Shown here: positions 4,965 through 61,380 of the stretch, piece after piece
How positions within the stretch are numbered: position 1 is the stretch's first letter
Layout: each line of letters starts with the position of its first letter
Source: a virus
IMG/VR virus record: IMGVR_UViG_3300017971_007887
Coordinates: 7,523-71,522 of that record
Length of the DNA: 64,000 bases
Strand: one strand, 5' to 3'
Notes under the pieces: model-generated
What the model was told of the DNA's origin: nothing
Database searches by the model: none
What the model saw: the letters and a program-made list of their open reading frames with translations, nothing else
Translations under genes and position numbers: made by a program

Positions 4965-4999
4965 CGAGCGCCTCCTTGCAGGTTCGTTTGTACCTGCAA

Positions 5000-6819: not shown

Positions 6820-8337
6820 TTCAATATTCCCTTTTGGCAATTCTGGCGAATATGTGCCCATTTGCTGCCATCTCATCTTTGCAGTCATCACACCAGCACA
6901 AGGGGCAGTCGTCACACATCGGAACAAACTCCGCCATCAACGTATCGTTCCACCAGAAGCCGCAATCATGTTCTGTGCCTGCGTCTGTTTCTGTCACTTT
7001 TAGATGTCTGCAGGTCTGGGCCGGTTTGTCTCCACAACGGCCACACATTCGTACCGATTTTTTGGGGGTCATGATTCCTCCCTGGGTAGGGCTTGGGCTA
7101 GCTGGCAGTCAGGAGTGTGCTTCCCCCCTCGCTCAAGAAACCCGCACGCTGGGCATTTCCCATAATCACGTTCCACAGTAAGTGCTGTCATGTCTGTACC
7201 ACCCCAGCCACCAGCCCACTCCACCTCTTCCAACGCATCCCATGCAGACAAGAGGGCGTCGCAAATATCGGGAAAATTCGTTCTGTCGTGACCCCACCCC
7301 TTGAGATCTACCCTTGCGGGCTTTTACCTCTTTCCTTGTTAGCTTCATGATATCTTCTCTGGATGCAGGTAGGAATCTCGCTCAAACTCACTCACCACCC
7401 ATTCATATATTTTGACCGCCATGGCTTCGGCTCTTGCCAGTGTGGTCGAATCCGGCAGAATCGCCCAGAGCAGGTTATTGATCTGCTGCTTGGTGTCCTC
7501 CTGTATTTTGGTCTGCATGTCCTGCTCAAGAAATTCATCAAACGTCTGGTTACTGTCTGCCTTCATGATTCCTCCGGGTACTTCTTGCCGGTTCCTTGGC
7601 AGGTTGGGCATGGCCTGAAAATATATTCCGACTTCCCGCCCGAGCTACAGGTCGCCCAACCGTAGCCATCCTCTTTGTGCAAGCAATCCTTCTTGGCAAA
7701 GAGTTCACAGCGAGGCACCCCGGTTTGGGGATCCTCGTAGCATGGGTGTCGATGCTCAGATTTTATTCCATCGCCGCCCACACCACAGCATATGGAGCAG
7801 GGCACCTCCCCCTTGACCCTTGCGAGTTCTGATCGGAGCTTGTCTATTTCGTTGTTGCGAATCTCCAGTGCATCCCATAACTCCTTGACGGCAACCTCTT
7901 GTTGGCTTGCATATATTCCAGATGCAAATTTCTGATAATCCATTTCTCTATACGCATCCCTCAGTACCCGGAAGGCTCTGCGCTCTTTGCACTCCAGGCT
8001 AGATGCCGGTCTTGACTCAAACCAACGCGTTTTGCACCTGCGTTCACTCCGATCCCACCACGGGCAATCACCGCATGTCTTGGTTGCCATCTAGTCCTCG
8101 CTGTCTGCATTCTGTGATTCGTATTCATTACGAAGCACATCGTAGATTTCACACGCGATTCTTTCTGCCCGGCCAAGCGTAGTAGTGGCTGGTAGACACA
8201 CCCAAACAAGCTCGTTGATCTTCTCTTTGGTGTAGTCTGGCATGTTGTAATGACAGTCTGTGCTCTGTAGCATTTGAACATCTCTTGAATCTTTCATCCC
8301 TCAACCCTCCTGAAAAGAGATCACCCACACCCAGGGG

Positions 8338-43823: not shown

Positions 43824-43890
43824 CTACCTCCCTGTTTTGCACGGGTCCATTCCCGCGATAAGACCCTGCAGGTTTTTACACCTGCAGGGC
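43824..43890 (-). repeat. two-hairpin/extended-SD leader, copy 1
   Basis: CCCUGCAGGU-GUAAAA-ACCUGCAGGG..UAU-CGCGGG-AAUGGA-CCCGUG-CAAAACAGGGAGGUAG. Confidence 0.9.
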
Positions 43891-43896
43891 AATCGT

Positions 43897-46614
43897 TTAT
43901 AACAAACCACCTTCCTGCAAAAATCTGCTCGGTGACAGCGGCCTGACCTTGCCGCCCATCAACGCGCCCCTCGGACTGGTAATCATCAGATGGTCCCGCG
44001 CCCTGGTAACGCCCACATAAAACAATCGGCGTTCCTCAGCCGGCCCGACACCATCACCCTCAAATCCATCGGCCCTGGCATGGGGAAGCACCATCTCGCA
44101 GGCACCCGCCAAGAATACCACCGGCCACTCCAGACCCTTGGCCTTGTGCAAGGTGCTGATCCACACCGCGTCCGGCTGCTCGTCGTCCTCCTTGGCCTTC
44201 CTCTTGGTGTCCAGGATGTTGTCCACGTACTCCAGCATCTCCTTGGCCGTCTTGAACCTGCCGGCCGTTCGGCACAGTTCCCGAAGGTTGCTCAGCTTGC
44301 TGTTCTCCGCGGTGTCGGTGCCCTCGTCCTTGATGATCCACTCTTCGTATCCGCTCACCTCGATCAGCTTGGCCAGCGCCTGCGGAAGCACGCTCTGCTC
44401 GGCGTCGTTCGGCTCGATGTCGTCTCGCAGATTCTGTACCAGGCTGACGAACTCCTCGACCGCTCTTTCCTGCTTGCTCCAGATGCCCAGATCGTACATC
44501 CGAACATCGGAAGCTACCTGCATGAAGTTACCCGCCGACTCCATCTTGTCGATGGTCTTCTTGCCGATGAACCGCCACGGTCGGTTGATGGCCCGTTTGG
44601 CGCTCTCCACGTCGTTCTCGTCCACGGCCACCCGCAGGTACGCCAGGATGTCGGCCACTTCTTTGCGCTTGTAAAACTCGGTGCCGCCGACTACCACGTG
44701 CGGGATTTTCTCCCGGATGCAGACTTCCTCGAACGCCCTGCTCTGCGCGTTGGTGCGATACAAGATCGCCATGTCCTTCCAATCGACTCCGTCCTCGTGA
44801 TAGGCCCGGATGCGCTCGACCACCGTCTCCGCCTCCGCGTCCATGCTTTCGCAGGACACGTACTCGACCGGATTGTTGTCCGGCCTGGTGGCCACGTTGG
44901 TCTTGGTGATCCGGTCCGGCTCGTTGCCGGTGATCACTTGGTTGGCGATCTCCAAGATCTGCGGAGTGCACCGGTAGTTGTGCTCCATGCGGAACACCCG
45001 CGCGTTGAACCGCTCCTCGAACGTCAAGGTGTACTCCGGCACGCTCCCGCGCCATTCATATATGCAGTTGTCCACCACGATGCCGTCCGCCACGTAGTTG
45101 TGATGCTCAGCCACCTCTAGGGATACGACTTCACCACTGTACTCCTCACAAAACTTCTTATGCACCGTTGTCCAACCATTGCCCGAAAGATGAACCTGCA
45201 TCATGCCAGGAATGATGTTCGCCGCGTATGCTCTAAATGTTTTGCTGCCATGTCTTCCACCCGCGCGTCCCCATTTCGATTCCTTGCTTTTGCTAGATGG
45301 TGGAAACGGCCACAATGGACAGTGCTCCTGTAATTCGAAATCATCGAACAGAACATCGACAGTGCTGATTTTTCTAACATACCTGAACAAATCAGCCAGC
45401 CGTACTTGACCCAAAACATGCTTGGTCTGCGACTTAAAGCAAGCAGTTGGGATGCGATATTGTAAAGATATTTTTTGTTCCTGCAATGCCGCATCTCCCT
45501 TATTGTCGTAAACCGAAAGTATCCAAGCAGCGTCCGCTTCTTCCAGTCGTGCACGTTGTCCCAGGTGAAATGCACCGTCCATGTTGAACATCTGGCACCA
45601 GCCCACCCTGTAGTCGTCGCCCTTTTTCATCAGGTAGCACGCCCATCGTTCGGTTTTCTTGTCCGCCCATCTGACTGGAATCTTGTGATCTGATGTCGCC
45701 CTGGTTGAACAGTGACCTGCAAGAATCGTGTACAGGTCGCCATAGTACGAACGCCGTTTGGTGCGAACAACTCTCCTGTGCCCACCCACCTTACCATTGT
45801 GAGACTGGAACACCCGAACCATGTCACCGACTTCTAAGGAACCAAGTTCGACTATTCCGTCTGCAGTTTCTACTTCGGTGTCCGGTGGCTGGCACTGGTC
45901 GTCGTCACCGACCACCAGCAAGACCTTGGCCTTCTCTGCCAAGATCTTCATCAACTCGTACTGAGCCGCGTTGCTGTCCTGGAACTCGTCCACGATCACG
46001 TGATCGAACATGCCCTGCCACTTGCCGCGGGCATGCGGGTCTTCCTGCAGATACCAAACCGCCCCGGACATCATGTCGTCGAACGTCAGCAGTCCCAGCA
46101 AGTGCCGGCACCGCTCGTACTTGCGATAGACCTCGACGTACCGATGGTCCGGGTGACTGGCGTCCTCCGGCTTGACCAGGGAGCCCTTGCAGTTGCTGAT
46201 GTACTGCTCCAGGTCGGTGATGTCGGCGTCTTCCCACTCCATGCCGAACACCCCGCTGTTCTCGACGGCTTCCTTTTTGCACCAGCCCAAGATGTCCTTG
46301 AGCACATAGTGCATCTTGTTGCCGTCCACCTTGTACTCGGCTTCGGGGCTGCCGTCGCGAACGATCTTGTATCCCAAGCTGTGCAAAGTGCGCACGTCCA
46401 CTTGGGGTATGCCGATCCGCTCCTGCATCTCCAACGCCGCGTTCTTGGTGAACGTGGTGCACAAAATCCGCTTGGCCGAGCAGCCCTCGTCCACTCGCTT
46501 CCTGACCCAGCACTCGACGGTGTGTGTCTTTCCCGAGCCCGCGACCGCGCAAACGATTGCGTTGCCCTCGGTGTGGTTCACCACTTCTTGCTGTGTCTCG
46601 TTCAGCTTTTTCAT
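43897..46614 (-). CDS. uvrD: UvrD/PcrA (SF1) helicase containing an intein
   Basis: AVAGSGKT, VDEFQD, VGDDDQ|CIYEWRG, NYRC, TLHKAKGLEW, EERRLFYVGVTRAR. Confidence 0.93.
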   Translation of the reverse strand: MKKLNETQQEVVNHTEGNAIVCAVAGSGKTHTVECWVRKRVDEGCSAKRILCTTFTKNAALEMQERIGIPQVDVRTLHSLGYKIVRDGSPEAEYKVDGNKMHYVLKDILGWCKKEAVENSGVFGMEWEDADITDLEQYISNCKGSLVKPEDASHPDHRYVEVYRKYERCRHLLGLLTFDDMMSGAVWYLQEDPHARGKWQGMFDHVIVDEFQDSNAAQYELMKILAEKAKVLLVVGDDDQCQPPDTEVETADGIVELGSLEVGDMVRVFQSHNGKVGGHRRVVRTKRRSYYGDLYTILAGHCSTRATSDHKIPVRWADKKTERWACYLMKKGDDYRVGWCQMFNMDGAFHLGQRARLEEADAAWILSVYDNKGDAALQEQKISLQYRIPTACFKSQTKHVLGQVRLADLFRYVRKISTVDVLFDDFELQEHCPLWPFPPSSKSKESKWGRAGGRHGSKTFRAYAANIIPGMMQVHLSGNGWTTVHKKFCEEYSGEVVSLEVAEHHNYVADGIVVDNCIYEWRGSVPEYTLTFEERFNARVFRMEHNYRCTPQILEIANQVITGNEPDRITKTNVATRPDNNPVEYVSCESMDAEAETVVERIRAYHEDGVDWKDMAILYRTNAQSRAFEEVCIREKIPHVVVGGTEFYKRKEVADILAYLRVAVDENDVESAKRAINRPWRFIGKKTIDKMESAGNFMQVASDVRMYDLGIWSKQERAVEEFVSLVQNLRDDIEPNDAEQSVLPQALAKLIEVSGYEEWIIKDEGTDTAENSKLSNLRELCRTAGRFKTAKEMLEYVDNILDTKRKAKEDDEQPDAVWISTLHKAKGLEWPVVFLAGACEMVLPHARADGFEGDGVGPAEERRLFYVGVTRARDHLMITSPRGALMGGKVRPLSPSRFLQEGGLL
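45067..45894 (-). mobile_element. intein (276 aa) in helicase motif III
   Basis: Starts CQPPDTEV, block B TSDH, ends HNYVADGIVVDN with +1 Cys; AT-richer than its flanks. Confidence 0.9.
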
Positions 46615-46617
46615 TTC

Positions 46618-46683
46618 CTACCTCCCTGTTTTGCCCAGGTTCATTCCTGGGATATAAACGGTCACGCCTTTTACACGTGACCG
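46618..46683 (-). repeat. leader repeat copy 2 (before UvrD)
   Basis: CGGUCACG..CGUGACCG; UAU-CCCAGG-AAUGAA-CCUGGG-CAAAACAGGGAGGUAG. Confidence 0.9.
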
Positions 46684-46689
46684 CCTTGT

Positions 46690-46965
46690 CTACGTTGCTG
46701 GATGTAACGAGCAATCGTCGCGGTGTCCCGCGCCTTCCCAGCAAAAGCACTGATCTGACAACCCGAAATCCCATGCCTCCAATGCACACACGACCGAGCT
46801 GCCGTCGTCAAACCGGAATTTGACGGGATCGTCCGTGTGATCGCCCGAGCGAATTTCTTCCGCCACGATTGCCAGCGCTTCGCACCAGTCGCGGTCTCCA
46901 ACAGACCAGCACTGGCCATCCAAGTCCTCGAAAAACTGCTTCGCAAATTTTCTTGCTTGGCTCAT
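46690..46965 (-). CDS. acidic hypothetical early protein
   Basis: ATG follows the repeat SD; FRFDDGS. Confidence 0.65.
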   Translation of the reverse strand: MSQARKFAKQFFEDLDGQCWSVGDRDWCEALAIVAEEIRSGDHTDDPVKFRFDDGSSVVCALEAWDFGLSDQCFCWEGAGHRDDCSLHPAT

Positions 46966-46967
46966 AA

Positions 46968-47095
46968 CTACCTCCCTGTTTTGGCCCTCCCCTTTTTGAA
47001 AACGACCGGGCAAGGAAGGGAGGAACCCTGCCCGGTCTTGCCCCGCCGCAACAGTGCGGCAGACTCCGGTGGCCGATGTTATCCGGCCACTCGGG
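46968..47095 (-). repeat. leader repeat copy 3 (variant with an anti-SD hairpin)
   Basis: CAAAACAGGGAGGUAG preceded by GACCGGGCAGGG-UUCCUCCCUU-CCUUGCCCGGUC. Confidence 0.75.
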
Positions 47096-47103
47096 GCTAT
47101 ACC

Positions 47104-47442
47104 TCAGTCCATGATGTAAATGACACGCGCGTTCCAGTCTTTCAACACGTTCCTGGCGGCGACGGTTGCCGATGCCCGCTTGTTCGCCTGGCCATGCGTG
47201 TAGCTAAGCCCATAACCGCGACCGTACCACCGACCACTATATCGATACCCACCAAACTGCTTGAACAAGGCATCCAGCTTCTTGCTCAGTCTAGAGCCGA
47301 GCGGACAATTCTTGCCGACCGGGATCAACACAAAATCCATGTTGCAGGTCCCACCGTCGTCAGTTTGACTGGCCGCAAAACTCGCCGCCCTGTTCGCGTT
47401 CCTGAGATCTTGGACTAACTTTTCTTCTTGTTTTTTGTCCAT
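47104..47442 (-). CDS. hypothetical early protein
   Basis: DDGGTCNMD...GQANKR motif. Confidence 0.7.
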   Translation of the reverse strand: MDKKQEEKLVQDLRNANRAASFAASQTDDGGTCNMDFVLIPVGKNCPLGSRLSKKLDALFKQFGGYRYSGRWYGRGYGLSYTHGQANKRASATVAARNVLKDWNARVIYIMD

Positions 47443-47444
47443 CA

Positions 47445-47508
47445 CTACCTCCCTGTTTTGCGCCGCTCAATTGCGGCGATATAGTCTCCCGGGATTTTAC
47501 TCCCGGAA
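47445..47508 (-). repeat. leader repeat copy 4
   Basis: CCGGGA-GUAAAA-UCCCGG; UAU-CGCCGC-AAUUGA-GCGGCG-CAAAACAGGGAGGUAG. Confidence 0.9.
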
Positions 47509-47515
47509 AACTGTC

Positions 47516-47923
47516 TTACTCCTCTTCCGGCCACTTCTCCTTGATGGCCACTGCGATGTACCTCACCGACCGGAACGGCCGCGGTTCGATCCGATCCAAC
47601 ACTTTGAATTTCAGCACCCTGGACACCGACCACTTCTTCGGTCGCCCTCCTAACGCGCGCTCCCATTCTTCCCTGGCCCGGTCGATAGCGGTCTGCGGTT
47701 TTCGATGTCGTCCCCACGCGCCCTGCCCGTATTCGTTGACTAGATGCACCTCGTATTGGATCGAGCAGTTGTTCAACATGTTGCGAACAAACCGCCGTCC
47801 ATTTTCAAATTCCAAATACTTCTCCAGGCGCCGTTCCACTGTCCAACAATTGACGCAGCGTTTCGTGCCAGTGTAGTCGGTCGGTTCTCCGCACGTCTTG
47901 CAAGGCACCTTGACCGTCATCAC
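47516..47923 (-). CDS. hypothetical Zn-finger early protein
   Basis: CKTCGEPT...TKRCVNCW. Confidence 0.6.
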   Translation of the reverse strand: MMTVKVPCKTCGEPTDYTGTKRCVNCWTVERRLEKYLEFENGRRFVRNMLNNCSIQYEVHLVNEYGQGAWGRHRKPQTAIDRAREEWERALGGRPKKWSVSRVLKFKVLDRIEPRPFRSVRYIAVAIKEKWPEEE

Positions 47924-48774
47924 ATCACCTCGTACTTCAGAATCTTCTTCTTGGGGTTGTACAACACCTTCACGTCCGGGCCGTCCTCGCCCAGTTGGGT
48001 CCGGGCGCTCAGGGTGTACCCGGCCTTCTTGTTCCTCTTGCCGGTCTCCTCTCCAAGCTGCACCAAGCCGGTCTCCCCGGCCTTCACACCCACCTGCTCG
48101 CGCTTGCGGGCCCTGGCGCTGGCCTTGACTTCCTTGGCCGGCTTGCTGACCTTCTCCACGCCGTTGACACCGGATACCTGGGCCGCCCGTTCCACCTTCT
48201 TGGGCCGTCCGGGCGACCGGGACTCGATGCCCCGTTCCGCACGCTGCTTTTTGGCCACCTGCTTCAACTCCGCGGCTGTCGCGCCGTCGGCAGCCATGCG
48301 GGTCAACTCCTTGCGGGCGTCCTCGTCGCTCGCCCGGGCGATCACGTAACTGATGCTCGGGCCGAACCTAGCGGCCATGTTGCGGTCCATCGCCCTGGCG
48401 ACCGCCATCATGTTGTACGCCGTTTGCGGCGTTCGGATCTCCTTGATGGACGCCAGGTACTTGCTGAACGACTCATGTCCGCCGTACTTCCAAAGCATCT
48501 TGTCCTGCACCTGCAGGAGCGCCTGACCGACTTCGAAAAACCGCAGCCCGATCTCCCGGGTTCCGGCCTTTACCTGCTCGGTCAGGTCTTCCAGCTCTTT
48601 CTGATTCCTGGTGTGATTTTCAGAGCCCGGGGTGTTGTCGATCACCGTGATGCGCCGTCCGGTGTCCGTCACCTCGCCGGTCTTTCCGTTGACGACTTTC
48701 AATGTGTCCTGCTCGGTGGCCGGCTTCGTTTTCATGCCCGGCTTCGATCCGTACTTCCGTTTCGCCTGTGCCAT
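47920..48774 (-). CDS. basic DUF3102-like protein
   Basis: FFEVGQALLQV..LWK..GHESFSKYL..TAYNMMAVA; similar to 34110-35144. Confidence 0.6.
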   Translation of the reverse strand: MAQAKRKYGSKPGMKTKPATEQDTLKVVNGKTGEVTDTGRRITVIDNTPGSENHTRNQKELEDLTEQVKAGTREIGLRFFEVGQALLQVQDKMLWKYGGHESFSKYLASIKEIRTPQTAYNMMAVARAMDRNMAARFGPSISYVIARASDEDARKELTRMAADGATAAELKQVAKKQRAERGIESRSPGRPKKVERAAQVSGVNGVEKVSKPAKEVKASARARKREQVGVKAGETGLVQLGEETGKRNKKAGYTLSARTQLGEDGPDVKVLYNPKKKILKYEVM

Positions 48775-48778
48775 GTTC

Positions 48779-48843
48779 CTACCTCCCTCGTTTGCCCGCT
48801 CCATTGCGGGATAACAGTTCGCAGAAGTATTCCCTCTGCGAAC
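48779..48843 (-). repeat. leader repeat copy 5
   Basis: GUUCGCAGA..UCUGCGAAC; UAU-CCCGC-AAUGGA-GCGGG-CAAACGAGGGAGGUAG. Confidence 0.9.
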
Positions 48844-48848
48844 CTGCG

Positions 48849-49401
48849 CTATTTCCTCGGAGGGGCCGGCCACACGTCGAGCAGCCCTTCCCGAATCTGC
48901 GCGCCCTCCAGGACCCAACAACCAGCGCCTACGTACACCCACGATTTACCGTCCATGATTTTCTTCTCACCAATCTTCATTTCGTCACCCTCCTGACCAC
49001 TTCTGTAGCAACCGCCTTGGACTCCTTTTCGTCCAAACCGAATTCAAAATTGATGATTCTTCCCAGGTAAAGCACCGCCCATTTTGGCGGGTCGTTGGGA
49101 TACTGTGCGATCCTGATCTTCGCCAAGGTACCCAAGAACACCGACCGTCGGGCGAAGTCTTTGACCAGCTCTGGATCCACCTGGCACCGCTTGCAGTAAC
49201 TCTCGCTCTGGTTTTTCTTTCGTCCGCAGGTGCATTTGCTTGAATTGACTGTCATGATAGTTCCTTTCGAACGGTTGATATCACGTGCCATTTAATGGCG
49301 CCAATTTTCTTCATGGTCACATCCTCATGACCGATTATTGTTTTTACGATAAAAAATTCACCAGTCTTCAACGTATAAACAATCTTTCGAAAATCGACCA
49401 T
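48849..49401 (-). other. three small early ORFs (49252-49401, 48977-49255, 48849-48980)
   Basis: Hand translation: MVDFRKIV.. (49 aa), MTVNSSKC.., MKIGEKKI.. (43 aa); ATGA overlaps. Confidence 0.55.
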
Positions 49402-49403
49402 AA

Positions 49404-49470
49404 CTACCTCCCTGTTTTGCCCGGGTTCATTCCCGGGATAGAACGGGGCCGGAATTCTATCCCGACCCCG
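49404..49470 (-). repeat. leader repeat copy 6
   Basis: CGGGGUCGGGA-UAGAA-UUCCGGCCCCG; UAU-CCCGGG-AAUGAA-CCCGGG-CAAAACAGGGAGGUAG. Confidence 0.9.
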
Positions 49471-49475
49471 CCAAC

Positions 49476-50423
49476 TCAGTCGCTTCCGTTGGTGGGCTCT
49501 TGTTCGTCGAACTTCCGATCCAAGATGTAGTCGACCGCCTTCTGGGCCCGTTGCGCCGCGCTGACGATCAGTTTAGGATCGTCCTTCAGCCGCTTGGCCC
49601 AGCTTTTGATGTATGCCGCGCTGTTGCGGTCCACCTTCGGACGGCGCAGTCCGAACTGCGCGTCCAACATGGCGGCCCCGATTTCCGCGACCAACTCTTC
49701 CTTGCTGTAATCCTCGCTGCCGAACGGGTTGATCCTGGCGTCGTAGTCGAACCGCGCACAACGTCCCGGGGTGCCGGTGCTGTGAACAGTCTCGTGCGAC
49801 CGGGTGCGGACATACTCCACGCTGCTCTTGTACTGGCTTTCGGACGGGATGGTGATCGAATCGTCGGCCGGCCGATAAAACGCCCGGTCCGAGCCTTCCT
49901 TGACCTCGATGCCCTCGCGCTTGATGTAGTCGACAAACGCCATGGTCGATTCCTTCACCGACTTGGCCAACGCCTTGCCGTTTTTCTTGGGCTTGTTTTT
50001 GGCCCGAGCCTCTTTGAGCCACTTGGGGTACTTGCTCTTGGGAACGGTCGTTTGCTCCAACGACCAGACCCGGTAGTAGAACATGGTGAAGCTCTTGCGA
50101 ACCTCGTCCGTCTCGGCGCCCTTCTCGTCCTTGACCTTGTACCCGCTGATTTTCCAAAACACCACCGGAATGGACTTCTCGCCCTTCTTGATCCGGCCGC
50201 CCGCTGCGTTGATCATCTTCCTGGTGAGCCAGGGTCCTTCCCGGCCGGTGCTCAGGGTCATCAGCCAATTGAGACCCCGGTACTCCTTGCCGTTCCACCG
50301 ATGGGTGGAAGTGCCGTTGGAAATCCACGGCTTCTCCCATGGGGGAATGTCGTCGTCTTGCATGGCCTGCACGAAAAAATCGGTCACCTTCTGATACGGA
50401 TAAGACACTTTGCCATTCTTCAT
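49476..50423 (-). CDS. ardC: ArdC-like antirestriction protein (ssDNA-binding + zincin-like)
   Basis: PPWEKPW, YRGLN, GGRIKKGEKS..VVFW, AFYRPADDSI.IP, HETVHSTG, YSKEELVAEIGAA. Confidence 0.9.
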   Translation of the reverse strand: MKNGKVSYPYQKVTDFFVQAMQDDDIPPWEKPWISNGTSTHRWNGKEYRGLNWLMTLSTGREGPWLTRKMINAAGGRIKKGEKSIPVVFWKISGYKVKDEKGAETDEVRKSFTMFYYRVWSLEQTTVPKSKYPKWLKEARAKNKPKKNGKALAKSVKESTMAFVDYIKREGIEVKEGSDRAFYRPADDSITIPSESQYKSSVEYVRTRSHETVHSTGTPGRCARFDYDARINPFGSEDYSKEELVAEIGAAMLDAQFGLRRPKVDRNSAAYIKSWAKRLKDDPKLIVSAAQRAQKAVDYILDRKFDEQEPTNGSD

Positions 50424-50425
50424 AA

Positions 50426-50490
50426 CTACCTCCCTGTTTTGCCCGCATCATTGCGGGATAGAGGCGCGACCCGGGAATTACCCGGGCCGC
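50426..50490 (-). repeat. leader repeat copy 7 (before ArdC)
   Basis: GCGGCCCGGG-UAAUU-CCCGGGUCGC; UAU-CCCGCA-AUGA-UGCGGG-CAAAACAGGGAGGUAG. Confidence 0.9.
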
Positions 50491-50499
50491 CCTGCCGGT

Positions 50500-50823
50500 C
50501 TAGTCGGGAATGGATGCCCACTTGCTGACCGAGCGCCGATAGAAGGCGCCGTTCTTTACCATCCAGTCGGCTTCCTTGCGGGCCTTGTCCATGATCTTCC
50601 GGCGCGCCACCCTCTCGTCGCCGTCGTCGCCACAGAAATGACCGATCATCAGGTTGATCAGTTCCTGCCTGATGTGCTGCAGGCTGCCGACGCAGTTCCA
50701 GTCGCCGTCGCGGCCCAGCTCCTCGGACACCTCAGCGACGACCTTCAGCAGTCCGCTGATCTCCTTGGTCGCCTCGGACACCAGGTTGATCCTCCGCTTC
50801 TCGTCCTTGTTCAGCTTCGCCAT
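50500..50823 (-). CDS. hypothetical protein, first early ORF
   Basis: DWNCVGSLQHIRQEL helical motif. Confidence 0.7.
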   Translation of the reverse strand: MAKLNKDEKRRINLVSEATKEISGLLKVVAEVSEELGRDGDWNCVGSLQHIRQELINLMIGHFCGDDGDERVARRKIMDKARKEADWMVKNGAFYRRSVSKWASIPD

Positions 50824-50827
50824 CTCG

Positions 50828-50958
50828 TACCTCCCTGTTTTGCCCTGACGTGATTGCCAGGGATAGGACCCGGTGACCCGTTACGGTCACCGAGCCAGAC
50901 ACCTACTCGTTCTGTTTTGCCCGGCGTCGCCGGGATGGTTGTAAAACTCGTTTTACAA
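50828..50958 (-). repeat. leader repeat copy 8 plus SD-less copy 9
   Basis: UAU-CCCUGGC-AAUCAC-GUCAGGG-CAAAACAGGGAGGUAC; upstream CAU-CCCGGC-GAC-GCCGGG-CAAAACAG. Confidence 0.85.
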
Positions 50959-50959
50959 T

Positions 50960-51577
50960 TTGCCCCGTCCGGGAATCGAACCCGAACAAACCCTCCAGGG
51001 GGACACAAGCCCGGACGAACCGGGCTGTTCCAACACACGTCGATAGACGTGCACGCACCATGTGACTCGACCACGTTTTTGCCCGGAGTGTGCCAGGCCG
51101 ATTCGCGTCAAGTCGATGCGATTTAAAACTAGGGAGGAGGTAGATTTCTAAATCGCCGGCTGCAACCTAAAACCGTCGGTCGGTTCGCCTCTTCGATTTC
51201 GTTCTCCAGGAATTCCCCGGCTCCCTCCTTCAAGGGTTCACCGCGCTCTTTCGAGCGGCGGTCCTGTCTAGACCGCCTCGCTTCATTCCTGGTTCCTGGT
51301 TCCCCGTGGGGTCCTGCCAGCGCCGTTCTTGCTGCCCGCTGGCACCCGGCTAGTTCGCCGGTTGGGCTGTTCGGGTCGCCCCTGCGCTCACCCTTCGATT
51401 GTCAGCCGCACCTAAAAACGCCGGTCGCGATTGCACGCAGGGCTAAGCCGCTCGTCCGGTTCGTGATGTCGGATGCTTCCGGAGTCGCCGCTGTTGGCGC
51501 TCGACGGACGGTGGGGACCGTGCCCATGACCGCTGCCGCCTTGCTTGCCCTGCCGCTCTGTGAGGTGCTTGCTCATA
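50960..51577 (-). ncRNA. candidate ~600-nt structured non-coding RNA or long leader
   Basis: No credible ORF; many hairpins; anti-SD loop hairpin at 51118-51156; internal repeat 51155-51182/51401-51427; T-loop hairpin at the 3' end; promoter upstream. Confidence 0.6.
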
Positions 51578-51582
51578 TGACC

Positions 51583-51612
51583 ATTCTACCAGGTTTACAT
51601 TGTAAACCAAGG
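51583..51612 (-). promoter_or_regulatory. extended -10 promoter with overlapping palindrome
   Basis: TTGGTT-N16-TAGAAT with TGn extension; perfect GGTTTACA-N-TGTAAACC at 51592-51608; upstream T-tract. Confidence 0.6.
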
Positions 51613-51798
51613 AAAATTCCGACAAAAAAACTAAGTAATTGCGGTCAGTTGTATGAATATTTTGGACGAGGGGTTGTTCCGTCTGTGGGACGCCTGCGAC
51701 GACTGTGGTCACCCTGGCTGCCAGGGACGATTGTGGTCTGCCTGTGGTCCTCCTAGCATCCGTTGTGTGGTGCGCCACAGCTCGCTGGCAACCCAGGC

Positions 51799-52038
51799 CT
51801 ACCGGCCTGGCCGGCCAAAAAATCCTACAACCTGGTTGAGCCGCCGTAGGTTTTCTGTGGATGGAGCGGTGCTGCCGCGCAACCACTTGCCGACTGCCAC
51901 CCGACTGGTATGGACAGCCCGAGCGACGCCGGCCAAGCTACCGAGCAGATGCACCGCGCAGCGCACCAGCATTTCCACCTGACCGACCGGCATGCGCTTC
52001 TGCTGGCCATCATCGTCTTCATAGATCACTGCAGCCAT
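51799..52038 (-). CDS. Cro/XRE-type HTH regulator
   Basis: SLAGVARAVHTSRVAVGKWLRGSTAPS.ENLRRL. Confidence 0.75.
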   Translation of the reverse strand: MAAVIYEDDDGQQKRMPVGQVEMLVRCAVHLLGSLAGVARAVHTSRVAVGKWLRGSTAPSTENLRRLNQVVGFFGRPGR

Positions 52039-52098
52039 CTCTGCCTCCCTTCCCCACCGGAGGCCAGGATGCCACAGTCAGGTTACAAATGTAAAGAG

Positions 52099-52464
52099 CT
52101 ACTTCTTGGTCAGCAGAACGACACCACCACCCACGAGTACGCCTGCAACCAGAGCGGTCGCGGCGATCAGAATCACAGTACCGGTGGACCAGGTCTCAGA
52201 GTTGACCTGGTGCTTGCCCCTGCACAGGTCCAGATCCTTTCGGCACCGGGCCTCGCTGCGGCCCGCCTCGAGAACCCGCTCCATCTGCTCCCGAGTGAAG
52301 CAGCCCTTCTCACCAGGCTCACACCACTTCTTGCGGACTAACGAAGGCGGCCCCGGCGTGGTGCCTTCACCACCGTGCTCCTCTACCGGGGCCGGTTTCC
52401 TTTCCTGTCCGCTAGCCGGTGCCACCATCAGCACGGTAGCGATCAAGCATGTCAAGAATCTCAT
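52099..52464 (-). CDS. exported protein with C-terminal TM (spanin-like position)
   Basis: Signal peptide, Cys-containing middle, C-terminal hydrophobic helix; overlaps the 3' end of the upstream gene. Confidence 0.5.
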   Translation of the reverse strand: MRFLTCLIATVLMVAPASGQERKPAPVEEHGGEGTTPGPPSLVRKKWCEPGEKGCFTREQMERVLEAGRSEARCRKDLDLCRGKHQVNSETWSTGTVILIAATALVAGVLVGGGVVLLTKK

Positions 52465-52660
52465 CGTGCAGCTCCTCATCGCTCAGGGCGCGGATCTCCT
52501 CCCGGTCGTTCAGCCTGGCGATTACGTCCAGGGCTGCGTCGCGCTCCGCCCTGAACCTGGCCTTGTCCCTGCGCTCCTTGACCACCCACAGGACCAGGAC
52601 GGTGCCGCCCACCAGGACGGCCCCCGCGATCACGACCACCAGCAGGTTCTGCCAGGCCAT
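52412..52660 (-). CDS. N-terminal TM + coiled coil (i-spanin-like)
   Basis: MAWQNLLVVVIAGAVLVGG..; RAERDAAL. Confidence 0.5.
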   Translation of the reverse strand: MAWQNLLVVVIAGAVLVGGTVLVLWVVKERRDKARFRAERDAALDVIARLNDREEIRALSDEELHDEILDMLDRYRADGGTG

Positions 52661-53112
52661 CACCCGCTCGCCTTGCGGATCTTCCTGGCCTCCACCTTGT
52701 CGGCGAACTTGGCCCGGCTCTCCTTGCTGAAGATCAGCTTGCCGAACGCGCTCCACATCAGGGTCGCCGGTCCAGAGGCAGTGAACGACTGGTAGATCGC
52801 AACACCCACGTCAACATCCGGCTTGGCCAACTCCACAGCGCAACTGCACAAGACTCCCACGACAGGCGCCAGGAATGCCAACCACAGCGGTTCCTTGACG
52901 ATGAACCTGGCGATGGCCCACACCGCAAGCATGATGGCGGTGGCCCCCACAACCCACCAGTCGCCCCCCTGGAACGCGCTGGCCAGGAACGCCAAAACAC
53001 CGCCAAGGTTCTCGTCGGGATCCAAGCTGGTCTCCTGCGCGATCACCGCCACCGAGTACATCAGCACCCACAACCCAGTCAGCATCAGCATCAGCCTCTT
53101 TATTTCCTTCAT
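52660..53112 (-). CDS. multi-TM holin-like protein
   Basis: Three to four hydrophobic segments, basic C-terminus; follows the tail genes. Confidence 0.55.
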   Translation of the reverse strand: MKEIKRLMLMLTGLWVLMYSVAVIAQETSLDPDENLGGVLAFLASAFQGGDWWVVGATAIMLAVWAIARFIVKEPLWLAFLAPVVGVLCSCAVELAKPDVDVGVAIYQSFTASGPATLMWSAFGKLIFSKESRAKFADKVEARKIRKASG

Positions 53113-53123
53113 CACTGCCTCCT

Positions 53124-55448
53124 TTATGGCCCGTTCAGGATCGGGCTGCTGTAAACATTCCACGTGTAGGGCGCGTTCGGCCCGCTGGCGATATCCGGCG
53201 TCAGAGTCGCCCCGACTGCGTCATTGAAGTCGATGTAGCACATCGGGTACGTGTCTGGATCGCAAATCTCGTAAGGTTTGATTGCGTTGTCCAGGATCTG
53301 CTGCAGCTGGCCACCGGTGTATCTATAACCCTTCACCCATAGCGCCCAGTATATGCGACCCTTGTAGAACTGCTGCGCGTAATCGGGTGCACTAGAATGC
53401 CCGTGGGCGGCAATCCTGACGCGGGACGAGCTGTCGTCTGTGACTGAGCCGAAGCAGAACGAGTAGGTGTTGATCGCCTGCGGGGTGTCGTCGTATATGC
53501 TACGGTACGACGAGTCTATGCTGTTCTTGAACCTGCCGGCGAGCACTGTGTCTATGAACGGGTGCGCCATGTCCCCGGTCTCTGCGTTCTGTAACCCGAA
53601 CGCTCCGCGCCAGACTCCGAACCCGACCGGCCTGCTGTTGCCCGCCGGGAACGTCCCGTGGTGCGTGGTGTACAGCTTCCAGGAGTTGTTCCCGCCCGGG
53701 TAGCCATCCTTGGTGTAGAGGCCATACGTACTGACAGCCGCGACTCCAGACGCTTCCTGCCTGACGCCGACTATCACCGAGCACTCACCCTCGTCGATCT
53801 CGAAGTCCTGGTTGCTCGCCAACCACAGGTGGTCGTCCACCCCGTCGAACCACCACCAGTCGGCCCATGGATCCTCTATGACCTCGGCCGAAAGGACCAC
53901 CGGGGCTATCGGCTTGTATACCTCACTGTAGTCGTCGATGCTCACCAGGTCCAGCACCATGTCGCTGCCTGTGCCGCGCCGGATACCGATCACCTTGAAC
54001 AGGGAGTCCCAGTTTTGGAACTCGTCCTCCACCCTCACGGTGGCCCACAGGGGAACGTTCACCGCACCCAGGTTGACCCGATAGCTGACGAACACACGCA
54101 TTCGGCTGTAAGTCTCGACGTACCAGTCCATCAACCAGGCAGCACCGTCATCGCTGTTCAGATCCCCCGCGTCCACGTCGCCCATAGCGCGCCGGCCGTA
54201 CCTTTCCTCCGACCTGCGGCAATCCTGGTTGTTGGAGGAGGTCTTCTCCAGGACGGATATCTTGCCGCCCCTGAGGCTGCTGCGGTTGTACCTGATCACG
54301 AACTCGTTGAACACGTCCGACCGCTTGGTTTCGGTCGGCCCGGATACGCACTCCTGGATACTACCGTCCGCGAACGACAGGTGGTGCATCACGTCCCGAT
54401 CCCACGTCAACGGCTTGAACTCGTACTTCCTGCCCCGCGGGATCATGCCGATGGGCAGCATTCGCAGGACACGGTCGATCAGGACTTTCAGTACCCCGCC
54501 CCTGGAAGACCTTGAGTTGAACACCATGCCCAGGTCTACTTTGGGCATGGCCAGCTTCACCTGCTTCAGCGACGACAGGTCGAACACATCGTCGTTGTTG
54601 GCGAAGAACGTGAGCAGGTACCGAATCACCGACTCGACATCGGTATTTGCGTGACCGGTCACGTCGGCGGTCACCTCCGCAGTGGCCGCGTTGTCGTTGG
54701 TGGTCACCCGGTGGTAGACGTTCCCCTCCGCGTCGGTCTGCCTGGTCTGCGCGGACACCGTCAACGCAGTGTCCTGATCGTACACCTCGGACACCTGGGC
54801 CCCTCCGGCGTACTCGTCCATAGGGTCGCCCATGGCCAGGAACACGTTACCCGCGATGGCACCGTCGATGTTGAGCACGGGCGACTTCTTGCAGCTTCCA
54901 ATCACAATGGGGTACGGCTTGCCAACATGGTCGTCGATCAGATTCGGTATCTTGGTCTGGTCGGCCACCACCGGGGGGAACCGCTGCTCGCCCTCCAGGC
55001 GGGTGTCCTCCACCCTGAAGTCGACGGTCTTCTCCTGTTCGTTATACGTGGGGTCCTGCAGCCGGCCGCGCAGAAGGTGGAACGCCTGGTCGAAGGTGAA
55101 ATCCCTGCCGATGATGTGCCAGTACACGTCCACCCTGATGTCCTGCAGTAGCAGCCCCGTTCTTCTCATCTCGGGGATTGGAAACCGCTCGGACATCACC
55201 GTGAACTTCATGTCCTGCACGCTCGGCTGTCGACCGAATACGTCCACCTTCTCCTTGTGCACCGGGTCGTTCATGATGGCCCCGTGGAACCTCATCCACG
55301 GGCCGTCGGCGGCGGACTGCACATCCACGTCGATGGTGCTGAAGCAGTACCGGTTGCCGCCGGCGTTGATGTCCACCAGGATGCACGCGCGCGCGTTGCG
55401 GTCGTCGGCCAGGCCCTGCCAGCCGTTCTTTTTTACATAGAAGCTCAA
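53124..55448 (-). CDS. tail tip / hub protein with C-terminal LamG-like domain
   Basis: GKPYPIVIG, NEFVIRY...SEERYG; WFDGVDD...FYKGRIY; position after the TMP. Confidence 0.65.
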   Translation of the reverse strand: MSFYVKKNGWQGLADDRNARACILVDINAGGNRYCFSTIDVDVQSAADGPWMRFHGAIMNDPVHKEKVDVFGRQPSVQDMKFTVMSERFPIPEMRRTGLLLQDIRVDVYWHIIGRDFTFDQAFHLLRGRLQDPTYNEQEKTVDFRVEDTRLEGEQRFPPVVADQTKIPNLIDDHVGKPYPIVIGSCKKSPVLNIDGAIAGNVFLAMGDPMDEYAGGAQVSEVYDQDTALTVSAQTRQTDAEGNVYHRVTTNDNAATAEVTADVTGHANTDVESVIRYLLTFFANNDDVFDLSSLKQVKLAMPKVDLGMVFNSRSSRGGVLKVLIDRVLRMLPIGMIPRGRKYEFKPLTWDRDVMHHLSFADGSIQECVSGPTETKRSDVFNEFVIRYNRSSLRGGKISVLEKTSSNNQDCRRSEERYGRRAMGDVDAGDLNSDDGAAWLMDWYVETYSRMRVFVSYRVNLGAVNVPLWATVRVEDEFQNWDSLFKVIGIRRGTGSDMVLDLVSIDDYSEVYKPIAPVVLSAEVIEDPWADWWWFDGVDDHLWLASNQDFEIDEGECSVIVGVRQEASGVAAVSTYGLYTKDGYPGGNNSWKLYTTHHGTFPAGNSRPVGFGVWRGAFGLQNAETGDMAHPFIDTVLAGRFKNSIDSSYRSIYDDTPQAINTYSFCFGSVTDDSSSRVRIAAHGHSSAPDYAQQFYKGRIYWALWVKGYRYTGGQLQQILDNAIKPYEICDPDTYPMCYIDFNDAVGATLTPDIASGPNAPYTWNVYSSPILNGP

Positions 55449-58633: not shown

Positions 58634-61380
58634 CTCGCGTACTCCAGCCCGGTGACATTGCCACCTTGGATAATCTGGTTCATGCGCCCGGTCCCCTTCC
58701 GGATGCTGTTGGACTGCATGCCGTCGACCACCTTCTCCGTGTCCTCCGACATCATGTGGTCGATGCGCAGGTTGTTGATTATCGTGTTGCCTCCGATTCC
58801 CTGACCACGATTAATCGCGTCGATCCCAGCCCTTCCACCTAGCGCCGACATGACCTCCTTGCGGATCACACCCTCCCCGGCCTCCAGTATGGTCGGCACC
58901 TCGTTGGCACCCAGACGTGGCTGCACGAACATGCCGGTGTGAGCCCTCAGGGCGTTACTGAAGTCAGCAAACCCCTTGGACATGCCACCCATCTGTTCCA
59001 CAAACCCACCACCGTGGAACAGGGAAGCAATGAAACCTCCCACTGCCCCGATGCCAGCGCCGAGTGCGGTTCCCACACCAGGAATCACAGATCCGATGGC
59101 AGCACCGAGCCCTGCACCCGTCAGGGTCCCACCGATCATTCCGCCGCCCGTGCCGCCAATCCCAAACGACAGTACCTCACTCAGGGCCTGGTACACCGAC
59201 TTGGCGATGGCATGCACGATCAGCGGGATGTTCTTGATGATGGCCGATATGATCTTGGGCAGGTTGGTGATGAACGAGTCTATGATCTTGGGGATGCCCT
59301 CCTCCGCCAGGTAGATCAGCGCGTCATCCAGGTTGTCCGCGAGACTCTCCCAGAACTCCACCGCCCCGTCCACCAGGCCCTGGACCGCCTCCTTGCCGTC
59401 CGCCAGGGCGGACACCAGGGTCCCAGCCCAGTTGAACAGCATGGCCCCGGCCTTCTCCATGAACCCGGTGGCCACCTTGGACAGGAAACCCTTGTCCTCC
59501 TCCCCGGGCTTCACCTCAAACTCCGCGTACCGTCTCTTCTCCTCTTCAGTCTCCAACTCGGCCCCGCCTACCTTGGCGCCCAGCGCCTTCAGCAGCGACG
59601 CAGTCCTGCCGGTGGTCTGGAACTTGAACATGTCGGGCATCTTCCGCTTTATGCTCTCGAACACCTCGTCCCACTTCTTCTCGAACTCGGTGAACCACTG
59701 GCTGATGCCGGACATCATGGAGACAGCGGACTCCTTGGCGACCTTGTCGGCCGCCTCGGCCTGGCGCTTGTAGAACTCGTCGACCGCACTGCCCATCATG
59801 TCCAGTGAGTCCATAAACAGCGCCTGGCGCTTGCGAAGCTCCCTTTCGTAGTCCTTGGTCCGCTTCGTGCCCGTCTTCGTGCCCGTCTTCGTGCCTGGCT
59901 TTCCCTTCTTGGCAGGCTCTCCCTCGACTGGTCCTGTCACCATAGCAAGACCAGTGCCGATCCCCTCGGCGGTGGACTCCGCCATGGCCTTCTTCCATGT
60001 CTGGAAGAACACGCCCGTCTTGGACTGCTTGTACGCCTCGCCTTCCATGGTGGTCACCACACGGGCAATCACCTCGCTCCCGAGGTGGGAGCTCTCCTTG
60101 GCCAGCTGGTACAGCTTACCGAAACCCTCCACCGCGAATGCAATGGCCTTTAGAACGAACCCGGCCGCCTTGGCGATGGCCATGAATCCGCCGACGATCT
60201 CCTTCTGGTTGTTCTTCACGTAATCGCCGAAGTCCTGTAGAGCGTCAAGCACGTGGGGCATCACCTGCTCGCCGATCTCAATCAACAGGACGTTCAGTTT
60301 GTTCCAGAACATCTTGGTCTGCTCGTCGAAAGTCGCGGCCATCTTCTGGTACGCAACCTCCGTCGCGCCAGTGGCCACCTGCATCTCCTCCAAAGAGGAG
60401 CGGAACTTGTCGATCCCGCTGCTAGCCAGAACGGACAGGCCGGTGATGGCTTCCTGCTCGATGCCCAACTTCTGCAGCGCGATGGTGTCCCCCTGGGTGA
60501 CCTCGTTCAGCTTCTCCAGAACCCCCACCAGACCGTCCCGCTTCAGGATGTCGCTGGCTGCTTCCCCGAACGCCGCATCCAACTCCTTGCTGCCCTTGGC
60601 CGCAACCCTCATGATCGCATTCAGGGACGTGAACGCCCGGGCTGATGGGACACCACCAGCGGTCATGGCGGCCATCGCAGCATTGACCTCTTGGAACGTC
60701 ACGCCGGCACCGGCGGCCGCGGAGGCCACTGTGCCCATACCCGCCGCCAGGTCGTTGAAGGTCAGCTTCCCGAGCTTGACAGACTTGAACAAGATGTCGC
60801 TGAAGTGAGTGGCCTGATCCGCCCCCTGTTGATAGGCGTTCAGGGAGGTGGTAAGCAGGTCCACCGCGCTGAACACGTCGCTCACGCCCGCCACACTGGC
60901 CTTCTGGGCGGCCTCCAGGAGCTTCATGGCACCGGCCGCGTCCTCGGTTCCCTTGGTACCGGCGGAGATGACCTGGTACAGGCCCTTGCTTAGCTCGTTG
61001 GCGGCCGAGCTGCTGCGGCTGGCCAGATCCTTGATGGCCTTGTCGAACTTCTTCATCTGGGCGGGCGCATCCTTGCCCAACAGGGTGCTCACCTCGGCCA
61101 TGCTCTTCTGGAACTCGTTGGCAGCCTTCACCCCCTTGTACATGACACCCACGAAGCCGGCGGTACCCATGAGGGCACCCCACTTCTTGGCAAATCCCAA
61201 GATGGCCTTGTCCGCGCGCTTGAACGCACCCCTGATCTTGGCGACCGTCTTGTTGCCAGCCTTCCCGGTCTCCTTGAGCTGATTCTCCGTGTCCTCCAAA
61301 TTCTTTATCAGGTCGCTGAACACCTTGTCGGTGTTCCCCTTCAGGGCCTTCATCTGGAGTATGAGATCAGCCTTGGCCAT
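58630..61380 (-). CDS. tape measure protein (TP901-type)
   Basis: FQKSMAEVSTL, GLYQVISAG, DILFKSVKLGKLTF.DLA; C-terminal FHGGG, HTG..EVPTILEAGEGV. Confidence 0.93.
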   Translation of the reverse strand: MAKADLILQMKALKGNTDKVFSDLIKNLEDTENQLKETGKAGNKTVAKIRGAFKRADKAILGFAKKWGALMGTAGFVGVMYKGVKAANEFQKSMAEVSTLLGKDAPAQMKKFDKAIKDLASRSSSAANELSKGLYQVISAGTKGTEDAAGAMKLLEAAQKASVAGVSDVFSAVDLLTTSLNAYQQGADQATHFSDILFKSVKLGKLTFNDLAAGMGTVASAAAGAGVTFQEVNAAMAAMTAGGVPSARAFTSLNAIMRVAAKGSKELDAAFGEAASDILKRDGLVGVLEKLNEVTQGDTIALQKLGIEQEAITGLSVLASSGIDKFRSSLEEMQVATGATEVAYQKMAATFDEQTKMFWNKLNVLLIEIGEQVMPHVLDALQDFGDYVKNNQKEIVGGFMAIAKAAGFVLKAIAFAVEGFGKLYQLAKESSHLGSEVIARVVTTMEGEAYKQSKTGVFFQTWKKAMAESTAEGIGTGLAMVTGPVEGEPAKKGKPGTKTGTKTGTKRTKDYERELRKRQALFMDSLDMMGSAVDEFYKRQAEAADKVAKESAVSMMSGISQWFTEFEKKWDEVFESIKRKMPDMFKFQTTGRTASLLKALGAKVGGAELETEEEKRRYAEFEVKPGEEDKGFLSKVATGFMEKAGAMLFNWAGTLVSALADGKEAVQGLVDGAVEFWESLADNLDDALIYLAEEGIPKIIDSFITNLPKIISAIIKNIPLIVHAIAKSVYQALSEVLSFGIGGTGGGMIGGTLTGAGLGAAIGSVIPGVGTALGAGIGAVGGFIASLFHGGGFVEQMGGMSKGFADFSNALRAHTGMFVQPRLGANEVPTILEAGEGVIRKEVMSALGGRAGIDAINRGQGIGGNTIINNLRIDHMMSEDTEKVVDGMQSNSIRKGTGRMNQIIQGGNVTGLEYAR

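Follow-up and report, generated by a model that had tools for sequence, protein, structure and literature searches.

What is the role of a stretch of more than 600 nt that precedes the early genes of a phage and harbors no credible gene of its own? We addressed this question for positions 50960 to 51577 of a window of 64,000 nt, which was taken from an IMG/VR record of 71.5 kb that bears the flag 'provirus' (IMGVR_UViG_3300017971_007887, bases 7523-71522) and which carries all of its confident genes on the minus strand. An original prediction, derived from the nucleotide sequence only, described the stretch as a long structured RNA and first phage transcript, the C-rich loop of which would shut off eight early genes by pairing with the Shine-Dalgarno (SD) motif of their leaders. 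The underlying observation was partly confirmed, and its interpretation is partly supported. Our own interpretation, which is tentative and may well be wrong, is that the early operon begins with a long untranslated 5' leader, represented by this stretch, in which an antisense element (referred to as anti-leader) is embedded that acts on the leader motif shared by the early genes, and first of all in cis on the first of them (gene 1). We favor this interpretation because of the position and uniqueness of the promoter, the missing coding signal, the lack of a terminator, the uniqueness of the anti-leader and a predicted fold in cis. It is further supported by structured sub-domains that fold better on the minus strand and by a hairpin of K1 mycobacteriophages, an independent analogue that displays an inverted copy of the start-associated sequences (SAS) of these phages.

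A repeated leader motif and its inverted near-copy

The leader motif AAAACAGGGAGGTA is indeed repeated, as had been claimed, with seven exact minus-strand copies in the range of 43825 to 50841 compared to 0.39 copies in shuffled sequences. The seven exact and two near copies, which are all found on the minus strand, are located 2-5 nt upstream of ATG, and one of the near copies, at 10480, stands 7 nt upstream of GTG. Each leader copy is preceded by two hairpins, the stems of which vary in sequence yet stay paired, pointing to covariation as judged by eye.

Within the stretch under investigation, CTCCTCCCTAGTTTT (51139-51125), which belongs to the loop of a hairpin and the sequence on its 3' side, is one insertion and one deletion away from a perfect reverse complement of the leader (15 nt). 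It is the sole site at an edit distance of up to 3 on the minus strand of the 64-kb window, which validates the near reverse complementarity that had been noted originally. For comparison, first-order Markov sequences contained 4 sites at an edit distance of up to 2 in 150 x 64 kb, which corresponds to 0.027 sites per 64 kb by chance. At the level of sequence, the complementarity of the loop region to the early leaders is unlikely to be due to chance.

The hairpin that displays the anti-leader (51156-51118, see Table 1) was recovered as originally drawn. Its predicted energy of -9.1 kcal/mol is weak in absolute terms, but compared to shuffled versions of this A/U-rich sequence the hairpin is stable (z-score of -5.18). 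The C-rich motif CCUCCUCCC is unpaired in the apical loop of this 11-bp hairpin, which has a low probability in the full fold of the leader. The similarity of the loop to the 3' tail of the 16S rRNA, which had been regarded as mimicry, carries less weight, since it follows from the anti-SD nature of the element.

The word CCTCC is found 34 times in the window on the strand that is transcribed (minus) compared to 322 times on the plus strand; the phage RNAs strongly avoid anti-SD words (CCUCC). Five distinct hairpins with a stem of at least 7 bp carry CCUCC in their loop on the transcribed strand. The two with the longest stems (11 and 12 bp) are the anti-leader hairpin and a hairpin at 47037-47004, both of which are located in early non-coding RNA. 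The latter (47004-47037(-), 12 bp) stands before the sixth early leader and shows UUCCUCCCUU, i.e. a second anti-SD loop.

Predicted pairing in cis with gene 1

Gene 1, which encodes a protein of 107 aa, is the likely cis target of the anti-leader. We calculated equilibrium pair probabilities (P) for the leader together with the start of this gene (51577-50810, 768 nt). In the resulting fold, 51137-51125 pairs with AAAACAGGGAGG of gene 1 (50841-50830, P 0.76-0.99), and a second contact involves 51145-51142 and the AGAU that spans the start codon (50825-50822, P 0.84-0.89), so that the predicted duplex consists of 12 pairs with one bulge over AAAACAGGGAGG and 4 pairs over the AUG. The local hairpin 51156-51118 is largely displaced in this fold of the whole leader, and forcing it costs 5.2 kcal/mol. 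The SD of gene 1 is paired with a probability of 0.999 in the native sequence, and values of at least 0.99 were reached with one of 40 shuffled upstream sequences; the SDs of the other seven genes are predicted to be paired at 0.17-0.96. Opening the initiation region would cost 7.7 kcal/mol in the case of gene 1, which is the highest value of the eight leaders (2.5-7.3 kcal/mol for the others).

The sequence of the predicted extended -10 promoter in front of the stretch, which was part of the original prediction, could be confirmed. The sequence TGGTAGAAT at 51583-51591(-) is the sole match to TGNTANAAT (extended -10, TGnTAnAAT) on both strands of the 64-kb window. Given that 1.75 matches would be expected in the window by chance, it is the position of the promoter that is informative and not the count. 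The hexamer TTGGTT is located 16 nt upstream of the extended -10 element (51610-51605, identified by eye). A simple sigma-70 scan did not list a promoter at 51583-51610.

We also searched the minus strand between 51577 and 50824 for terminator-like sites and found none, from which we conclude that the stretch is continuous with gene 1. The originally proposed separate first transcript is not supported, since the stretch runs into gene 1 without a terminator-like site, the anti-leader and its targets would be located on the same transcript, and the predicted fold places the anti-leader on the SD and AUG of gene 1 in cis.

As originally stated, the stretch lacks a credible open reading frame (ORF): between the predicted transcription start (about 51576) and the AUG with which gene 1 begins (50823), i.e. 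over about 750 nt, all frames are negative in codon-usage log-odds (51577-50824), compared to a mean of +0.40 for true genes (5th percentile -0.10) and of -0.73 for off-frames. The ORFs found in the stretch (54, 52, 52 and 87 aa) have codon scores of -0.23 to -0.49, with -0.23 for the 54-aa ORF, which argues against this ORF as a real gene, and -0.43 and -0.49 for the two 52-aa ORFs. None of the three small ORFs compared to PHROG had a match (3/3). The AUG of the 54-aa ORF (51412-51576) coincides with the predicted +1, 7 nt past the -10 hexamer, an arrangement resembling that of leaderless genes.

From these features we infer the following mechanism. Host RNA polymerase would transcribe a leader of about 750 nt from the extended -10 promoter (51583-51610), with an operator palindrome that overlaps the promoter probably being bound by the adjacent helix-turn-helix (HTH) protein. 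The 3' two thirds of the leader would fold into stable hairpins, which are partly built of degenerate intergenic leader modules. The element at 51145-51125, an inverted near-copy of the leader core, would most likely act as an antisense (anti-SD) element within the transcript of its own targets. It would pair in vivo with the SD and AUG of gene 1 first, in cis, and possibly with the seven other leaders, and this pairing would delay or damp translation of the early genes; the weak local hairpin 51156-51118 would represent an alternative state, in which the SD is freer. Should the pairing be functional, a single short antisense element would control an entire group of early genes via their common, structured ribosome-binding leader, which would amount to a timing of the phage programme by RNA only.

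Several points weigh against this interpretation. When the upstream 711 nt were shuffled, the SD of gene 1 was still paired at 0.71 on average and at 0.95 or above in 4 of 40 cases, and when the anti-leader alone was scrambled, the SD stayed 0.82-0.88 paired via a second C-rich tract at 51002-50998. Although no anti-leader is involved, the SD of gene 2 is predicted to be masked almost as strongly (0.82-0.96, opening cost 7.3 kcal/mol). Long-range pairs are in general unreliable in folds of single sequences, and co-transcriptional folding would favor the local hairpin. The case for complementarity is also much weaker at the energy level than at the sequence level: among the non-overlapping 36-nt sites of the 64-kb strand, the site ranks 19th, 18th, 32nd, 31st, 31st, 27th, 2nd and 3rd in duplex energy with the eight initiation regions, and 9th and 4th with the core leader alone. 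Moreover, no relative in which conservation could be examined was found in any of the collections searched, and the inverted copy might have been left behind by recombination among the repeated modules. Following these controls, we keep the predicted folding as evidence, but down-weight it.

Comparison with known systems

The statement of the original prediction that the locus cannot be matched to any described system was too strong, because the C4 RNA of the phages P1 and P7 and the SAS of Cluster K mycobacteriophages are close analogues. C4 covers the ribosome binding site of icd. C4 is described as an antisense RNA that is encoded at the head of the immI operon (c4-icd-ant) and acts at a downstream site on the same transcript (PMC8198154), and its precursor is a substrate of RNase P (PMC11143913). 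The position of the anti-leader, upstream of its target in what is predicted to be the same operon, would fit such an arrangement, and the anti-leader is complementary to the ribosome binding region of gene 1. In contrast to C4, which is a short processed RNA, the leader described here comprises 750 nt, and its target motif is repeated before eight genes. C4 also functions in the immunity of temperate phages, whereas no integrase was found here, and no Rfam family reached its threshold.

Cluster K mycobacteriophages harbor 13-bp SAS upstream of 13-19 non-structural genes (PMC3203893). In this publication, SAS and their extended form (ESAS) are described as a repeated, asymmetric extended SD motif, which is found a few bases before start codons and often behind an inverted repeat, and inverted sites of Adephagia, Angelica and CrimD are listed in its Figure S3. 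The ESAS repeats were judged to be non-covarying as RNA and are said to contain promoters (PMC3203893, PMC11373665), and the function of SAS was still termed unclear in publications from 2024 and 2025 (PMC11373665, PMC12699233).

The right 36 kb of the Mycobacterium phage Anaya contain 16 forward copies of SAS and one inverted copy. The inverted copy lies in an unannotated gap of 385 nt, where a two-tier hairpin (59840-59912 of the record) displays it in its apical loop of 10 nt. Conservation of this gap extends to 182 Cluster K records. We compared 16 Cluster K phages, i.e. Anaya and 15 picked phages: the inverted SAS is kept in this loop with at most 2 mismatches in 7 of the 16, and for the remaining 9 the fetched stretch contains no copy with up to 3 mismatches. 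In an alignment of the 7 phages with the motif (6 distinct rows; the 9 phages without it were left out), 98% of the cells are paired compared to 34-48% in slid controls, and 2 of the 17 pairs change on both sides, which provides modest support for a conservation of the hairpin, given the few sequences. A literature search of limited scope retrieved no published description of this K1 hairpin.

Both systems share an extended-SD repeat close to the start codons of non-structural genes, in one orientation and behind inverted repeats, with one inverted copy that is located in a loop. They have no sequence similarity, with the SAS consensus being GGGATAGGAGCCC compared to AAAACAGGGAGGTAG here. Since the two motifs differ, the repeats described here represent an analogue of the SAS system and not a member of it. 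In contrast to the ESAS repeats, the leader hairpins covary here, as judged by eye; furthermore, the element of Anaya is located near the right genome end and not at the head of an early operon, and the host groups differ. A repeated start-associated leader with one inverted copy displayed in a hairpin loop recurs in unrelated phages, which we consider an analogy and not a homology. The K1 parallel provides a concrete and testable hypothesis for the puzzle raised by the start-associated sequences in 2011, and the K1 phages are amenable to engineering in a laboratory host that is harmless.

Masking of an SD by its own leader is also found in MS2, where the SD of the maturation gene is masked at equilibrium by long-distance pairing with a complementary sequence further upstream in the 5' leader. 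With such anti-SD leaders acting in cis, translation would depend on folding kinetics or on an opening of the structure. In contrast to MS2, the pairing described here is predicted, spans about 290 nt across several hairpins and has weak controls, and the masked motif is common to seven further genes. RNAIII and RsaE/RoxS, to which the original prediction referred, act in trans as discrete RNAs that have terminators of their own and contain several motifs rich in C. The similarity to these RNAs lies in a C-rich apical loop that is complementary to the SD; they differ from the stretch analysed here, which has no terminator, no Rfam match and one clear loop in addition to the second C-rich tract. 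What sets the present case apart from the known ones is that the target is a structured leader of eight genes, that the element is an inverted copy of it and that the 750-nt leader contains a well-folded junction.

Alternative explanations

Among the alternatives, the one that survives best regards the stretch as a leader or spacer that consists of early genes and leader modules in a state of decay. In this case, the inverted copy would be a by-product of recombination and the function would reside in other structured parts, e.g. in protein binding by the junction or in RNA stability. We consider this somewhat doubtful, although it is consistent with a number of results. The 3' half of the stretch contains two forward, SD-less modules consisting of a hairpin and CAAAAC (51098-51070 and 50934-50905) in addition to the inverted core, and it looks, on this basis, as if the stretch was assembled from the repeat family of the intergenic leaders. 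The ORF remnants start at module-like distances, as in the case of the 52-aa ORF (50903-51061; codon score -0.485, i.e. non-coding), the AUG of which follows the degenerate module at 51070-51098. The energy ranks and the folding controls are unremarkable, and the strongest structure is the junction 51292-51206 and not the anti-leader hairpin. On the other hand, the inverted copy is located exactly in the apical part of a hairpin and on the strand that avoids CCUCC, a second anti-SD loop is found in another early module (47037-47004), and the same layout is conserved in the K1 mycobacteriophages. Should the pairing have no function, what remains is an ordinary long leader of decayed repeats.

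It is unlikely that the early transcript gives rise to a discrete, stable RNA of about 620 nt from its start, for instance by processing at a T-loop hairpin or between modules, and that the C-rich loop of this RNA shuts off the eight early leaders in trans and perhaps also SDs of the host. Such a trans-acting riboregulator, which is less supported than an embedded antisense leader, would be in agreement with the full exposure of the loop CUACCUCC in the local hairpin, with the match of this loop to GGAGGUAG of six of the eight leaders, and with the position of the stretch, which takes the place of a gene before an SD-less module. The 3' end of the stretch moreover carries an exact T-arm consensus, and the C4 antisense RNA of P1/P7 is a substrate of RNase P (PMC11143913). 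The potential for pairing between loop and leaders, as originally claimed, is real at the level of sequence, and a 66-nt segment with the hairpin is predicted to bind all eight leader segments with binding energies of -8.6 to -13.6 kcal/mol. The gain is small, however: scrambled loops bind with -6.4 to -10.6 kcal/mol on average, so that the native loop is better than the mean by about 1 to 4 kcal/mol, and for four of the eight leaders (g2, g4, g6 and g8) the best single scramble binds tighter than the native loop. The absence of a terminator-like site and the direct transition into gene 1 also speak against a discrete RNA, ARAGORN finds no tRNA-like fold, and the hairpin is weak and outcompeted in the full fold. 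In addition, there would be a problem of stoichiometry, with one anti-leader per transcript facing eight leaders, unless the RNA accumulates. We give similarly little credence to a more far-reaching version, according to which the stand-alone RNA is cut from the early transcript with the T-loop hairpin as processing signal, acts as a timer or off-switch of an eight-gene early regulon in trans and forms, together with the K1 anti-SAS hairpin, an undescribed, recurrent class of 'anti-leader' RNAs. If such a stand-alone RNA existed, it would mean that phages address a whole gene set via a common ribosome-binding leader.

There is a rather small chance that the region works mainly as DNA, i.e. as a late/early control region or as a terminal region (replication origin, packaging site or first-injected end), with the repeats and palindromes serving as protein sites. 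Its position between tail/lysis genes and early genes would fit, as would a cluster of ACCACAR repeats and an A+T-rich tract just upstream and the palindromes at 51608-51592, 52095-52081 and 50958-50939. However, these DNA features are mostly located upstream of 51577 and thereby outside the stretch, the structure is stronger on the minus strand and includes G-U pairs, the GC skew has no turn, and Logan contigs cross 50603-54000 unbroken. Finally, it is highly improbable that the stretch encodes small proteins, namely a leaderless peptide of 54 aa that starts at 51576, a peptide of 52 aa (51061-50903) preceded by a weak SD, or both, because the AUG 7 nt downstream of the -10 hexamer and the module-like distance of the 52-aa ORF from CAAAAAC are opposed by codon scores of -0.23 and -0.49 compared to +0.40 for genes, by the lack of a family match and by the overlap of the 52-aa ORF with the most structured RNA.

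Predicted structure of the putative leader RNA

The features of the region are compiled in Table 1.

Table 1 Features of the leader region and its neighbors. Positions refer to the window; z-scores compare predicted folding energies with those of shuffled sequences, and P denotes pair probabilities.
Feature	Position	Strand	Properties
HTH protein gene, 79 aa	51799..52038	-	directly upstream; Pfam HTH_3, E 2.6e-5, above cut-off
ACCACAR repeat cluster	51685..51780	-	candidate protein-binding array (activator or replication initiator); direct-repeat families D1, D3, D7
Predicted early promoter	51583..51610	-	TTGGTT, 16 nt, TGgTAGAAT; predicted start near 51576
5' part of the leader, G-rich, no more structured than shuffles	51362..51576	-	z about 0 to +1; contains 54-aa ORF
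87-nt four-way junction	51206..51292	-	8-bp closing helix, three hairpins, one with GAAA tetraloop; z -5.30
Anti-leader hairpin	51118..51156	-	11 contiguous A/U-rich pairs including one G-U; 17-nt loop AUCUACCUCCUCCCUAG; inverted repeat I19
Anti-leader core	51125..51145	-	unique near reverse complement of leader
Degenerate forward leader module	51070..51098	-	H2-like hairpin GCCUGG/CCGGGC, then CAAAAAC, no SD; hairpin P 1.00; repeat D12
Three to four hairpins	50965..51056	-	z -2.78 on minus strand, -3.21 on plus strand
A/U-rich palindromic hairpin	50939..50958	-	UUGUAAAAC-GA-GUUUUACAA; P 0.90; no U-run behind; not terminator-like
SD-less copy of the leader module	50905..50934	-	H2-like hairpin and GCAAAACAG; repeat D2
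Full leader module of gene 1	50824..50895	-	H1 (50895-50868), H2 (50862-50843), CAAAACAGGGAGGUA (50842-50828)
First early gene, 107 aa, without known family	50500..50823	-	codon score +0.54

Over the whole 641 nt, the z-score for folding is -2.4, and the signal is uneven. Windows within 51000-51350 reach z-scores of -3.2 to -4.9 on the minus strand compared to -1.5 to -2.1 on the plus strand, whereas windows within 51350-51600 fold no better than shuffles (z about 0 to +1). The description as a long structured RNA accordingly holds for about 51361-50965 and not for the remainder, so that the structured part is predicted to be limited to the 3' ~400 nt of the stretch, with the 5' ~230 nt being no better than shuffles. 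The preference for the minus strand had been deduced from a single G-U pair of the hairpin 51156-51118, which is thin; the lower z-scores on the minus strand are better evidence.

The best-defined fold of the region is the four-way junction at 51206-51292, which has no Rfam match. With a predicted energy of -43.6 kcal/mol (51292-51206), it was not equalled by any of 200 shuffles and has a frequency of the minimum free energy structure of 0.38; on the plus strand, its z-score is -3.88.

The last hairpin of the block at 50965-51056 (50989-50965) contains the exact tRNA T-arm consensus GGUUCGAUUCC in its stem and loop, and the consensus GGTTCGANTCC occurs once in the window compared to 0.12 expected occurrences. 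Only the T-arm consensus is present, and no 5' strand that could serve as acceptor partner for the ACGGGGC strand was found by eye. The idea that the site is an attP or a tRNA fragment was rejected at the stringency of the following searches: the record contains no tyrosine integrase (PF00589), ARAGORN predicts no tRNA or tmRNA gene in the window and the adjoining 7.6 kb, and none of 185,579 genomes contains an exact match to the T-arm 23-mer.

Searches for relatives and expression

In the whole window, no Rfam 15 family matched at its gathering threshold, including GOLLD, ROOL and tmRNA, for which a comparison had been suggested originally, as well as C4 and RsaE. A permissive search of 50700-51750 yielded four matches with E-values of 1.7 to 9.2, the best of which scored 16 bits compared to a cut-off of 40. 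A blastn search with 50800-51700 against 50,697 phage records gave no match.

The 107-aa protein has no match in Pfam or PHROG, and its sole match among 5.8 billion proteins is itself; it is encoded on three contigs, the longest of which comprises 91,869 bases. Neither this protein nor the 774-aa tail protein nor the polymerase retrieved a relative from IMG/VR, and the HTH protein retrieved two weak loci (43% over 30 residues). Among the 15 matches listed, the polymerase is at most 27% identical to that of any cultured phage. An alignment of the ArdC-like protein comprised 61 IMG/VR loci with an identity of at most 41%, except for two partial ones (43% and 52% over about 100-130 residues), and none of the 61 loci showed similarity to the stretch in blastn or nhmmer searches or a repeated SD leader of this kind. 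Two further scans of IMG/VR yielded 2 and 24 loci, which share the seed only; most of the 24 look coding. The leader 17-mer had one match in IMG/VR, 55 single matches in metagenomes and 34 single matches in genomes, none of them representing a multi-copy locus.

No RNA run was found that holds the stretch. Two DNA runs contain it with 0 differences, and two more contain a piece of 166-172 nt, again with 0 differences, so that these four runs provide no natural variation to use. The Logan contigs of two runs span 50603-54000 unbroken.

Upstream DNA and genome context

A perfect palindrome, GGTTTACAATGTAAACC (51608-51592), occupies the spacer of the promoter, and GTTTACNNNGTAAAC is unique in the window within 2 mismatches. 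A half-palindrome akin to it precedes the HTH gene (52081-52095). Related palindromes based on GTTTAC/GTAAAC are found at three sites, namely in the promoter spacer (51592-51608), before the HTH gene (52081-52095) and in the A/U-rich hairpin at the 3' end of the stretch (50939-50958). The three palindromes are likely to be operators of the 79-aa HTH protein, which is the candidate regulator of the palindrome in the promoter. Further upstream, three of the 21 ACCACAR sites of the window are clustered within 46 nt (51703-51748), besides variants of this motif, and an A+T-rich tract (about 51665-51611) separates the cluster from the promoter. Cluster and tract could represent activator sites or an origin-like array.

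Along the minus strand, the gene order starts with a tape-measure protein (PF10145), two very large tail proteins and small membrane ORFs, and continues with the 79-aa HTH_3 protein (51799-52038), the leader stretch and the 107-aa orphan gene (50500-50823). The latter is followed by genes for an ArdC-like protein and a UvrD-like helicase and, further along the strand, by genes for helicases, DnaB, a family B polymerase, a UvsX-like and an SbcC-like protein, the large terminase and the portal. From this gene order we conclude that the stretch is located where the late module and the early module meet in a one-strand phage genome. The cumulative GC skew has no turn at the stretch. The largest region without a minus-strand ORF of positive codon score is located elsewhere in the window, at 4965-7344, where the G+C content is lower (0.53-0.55) and the genes are possibly foreign or differently biased.

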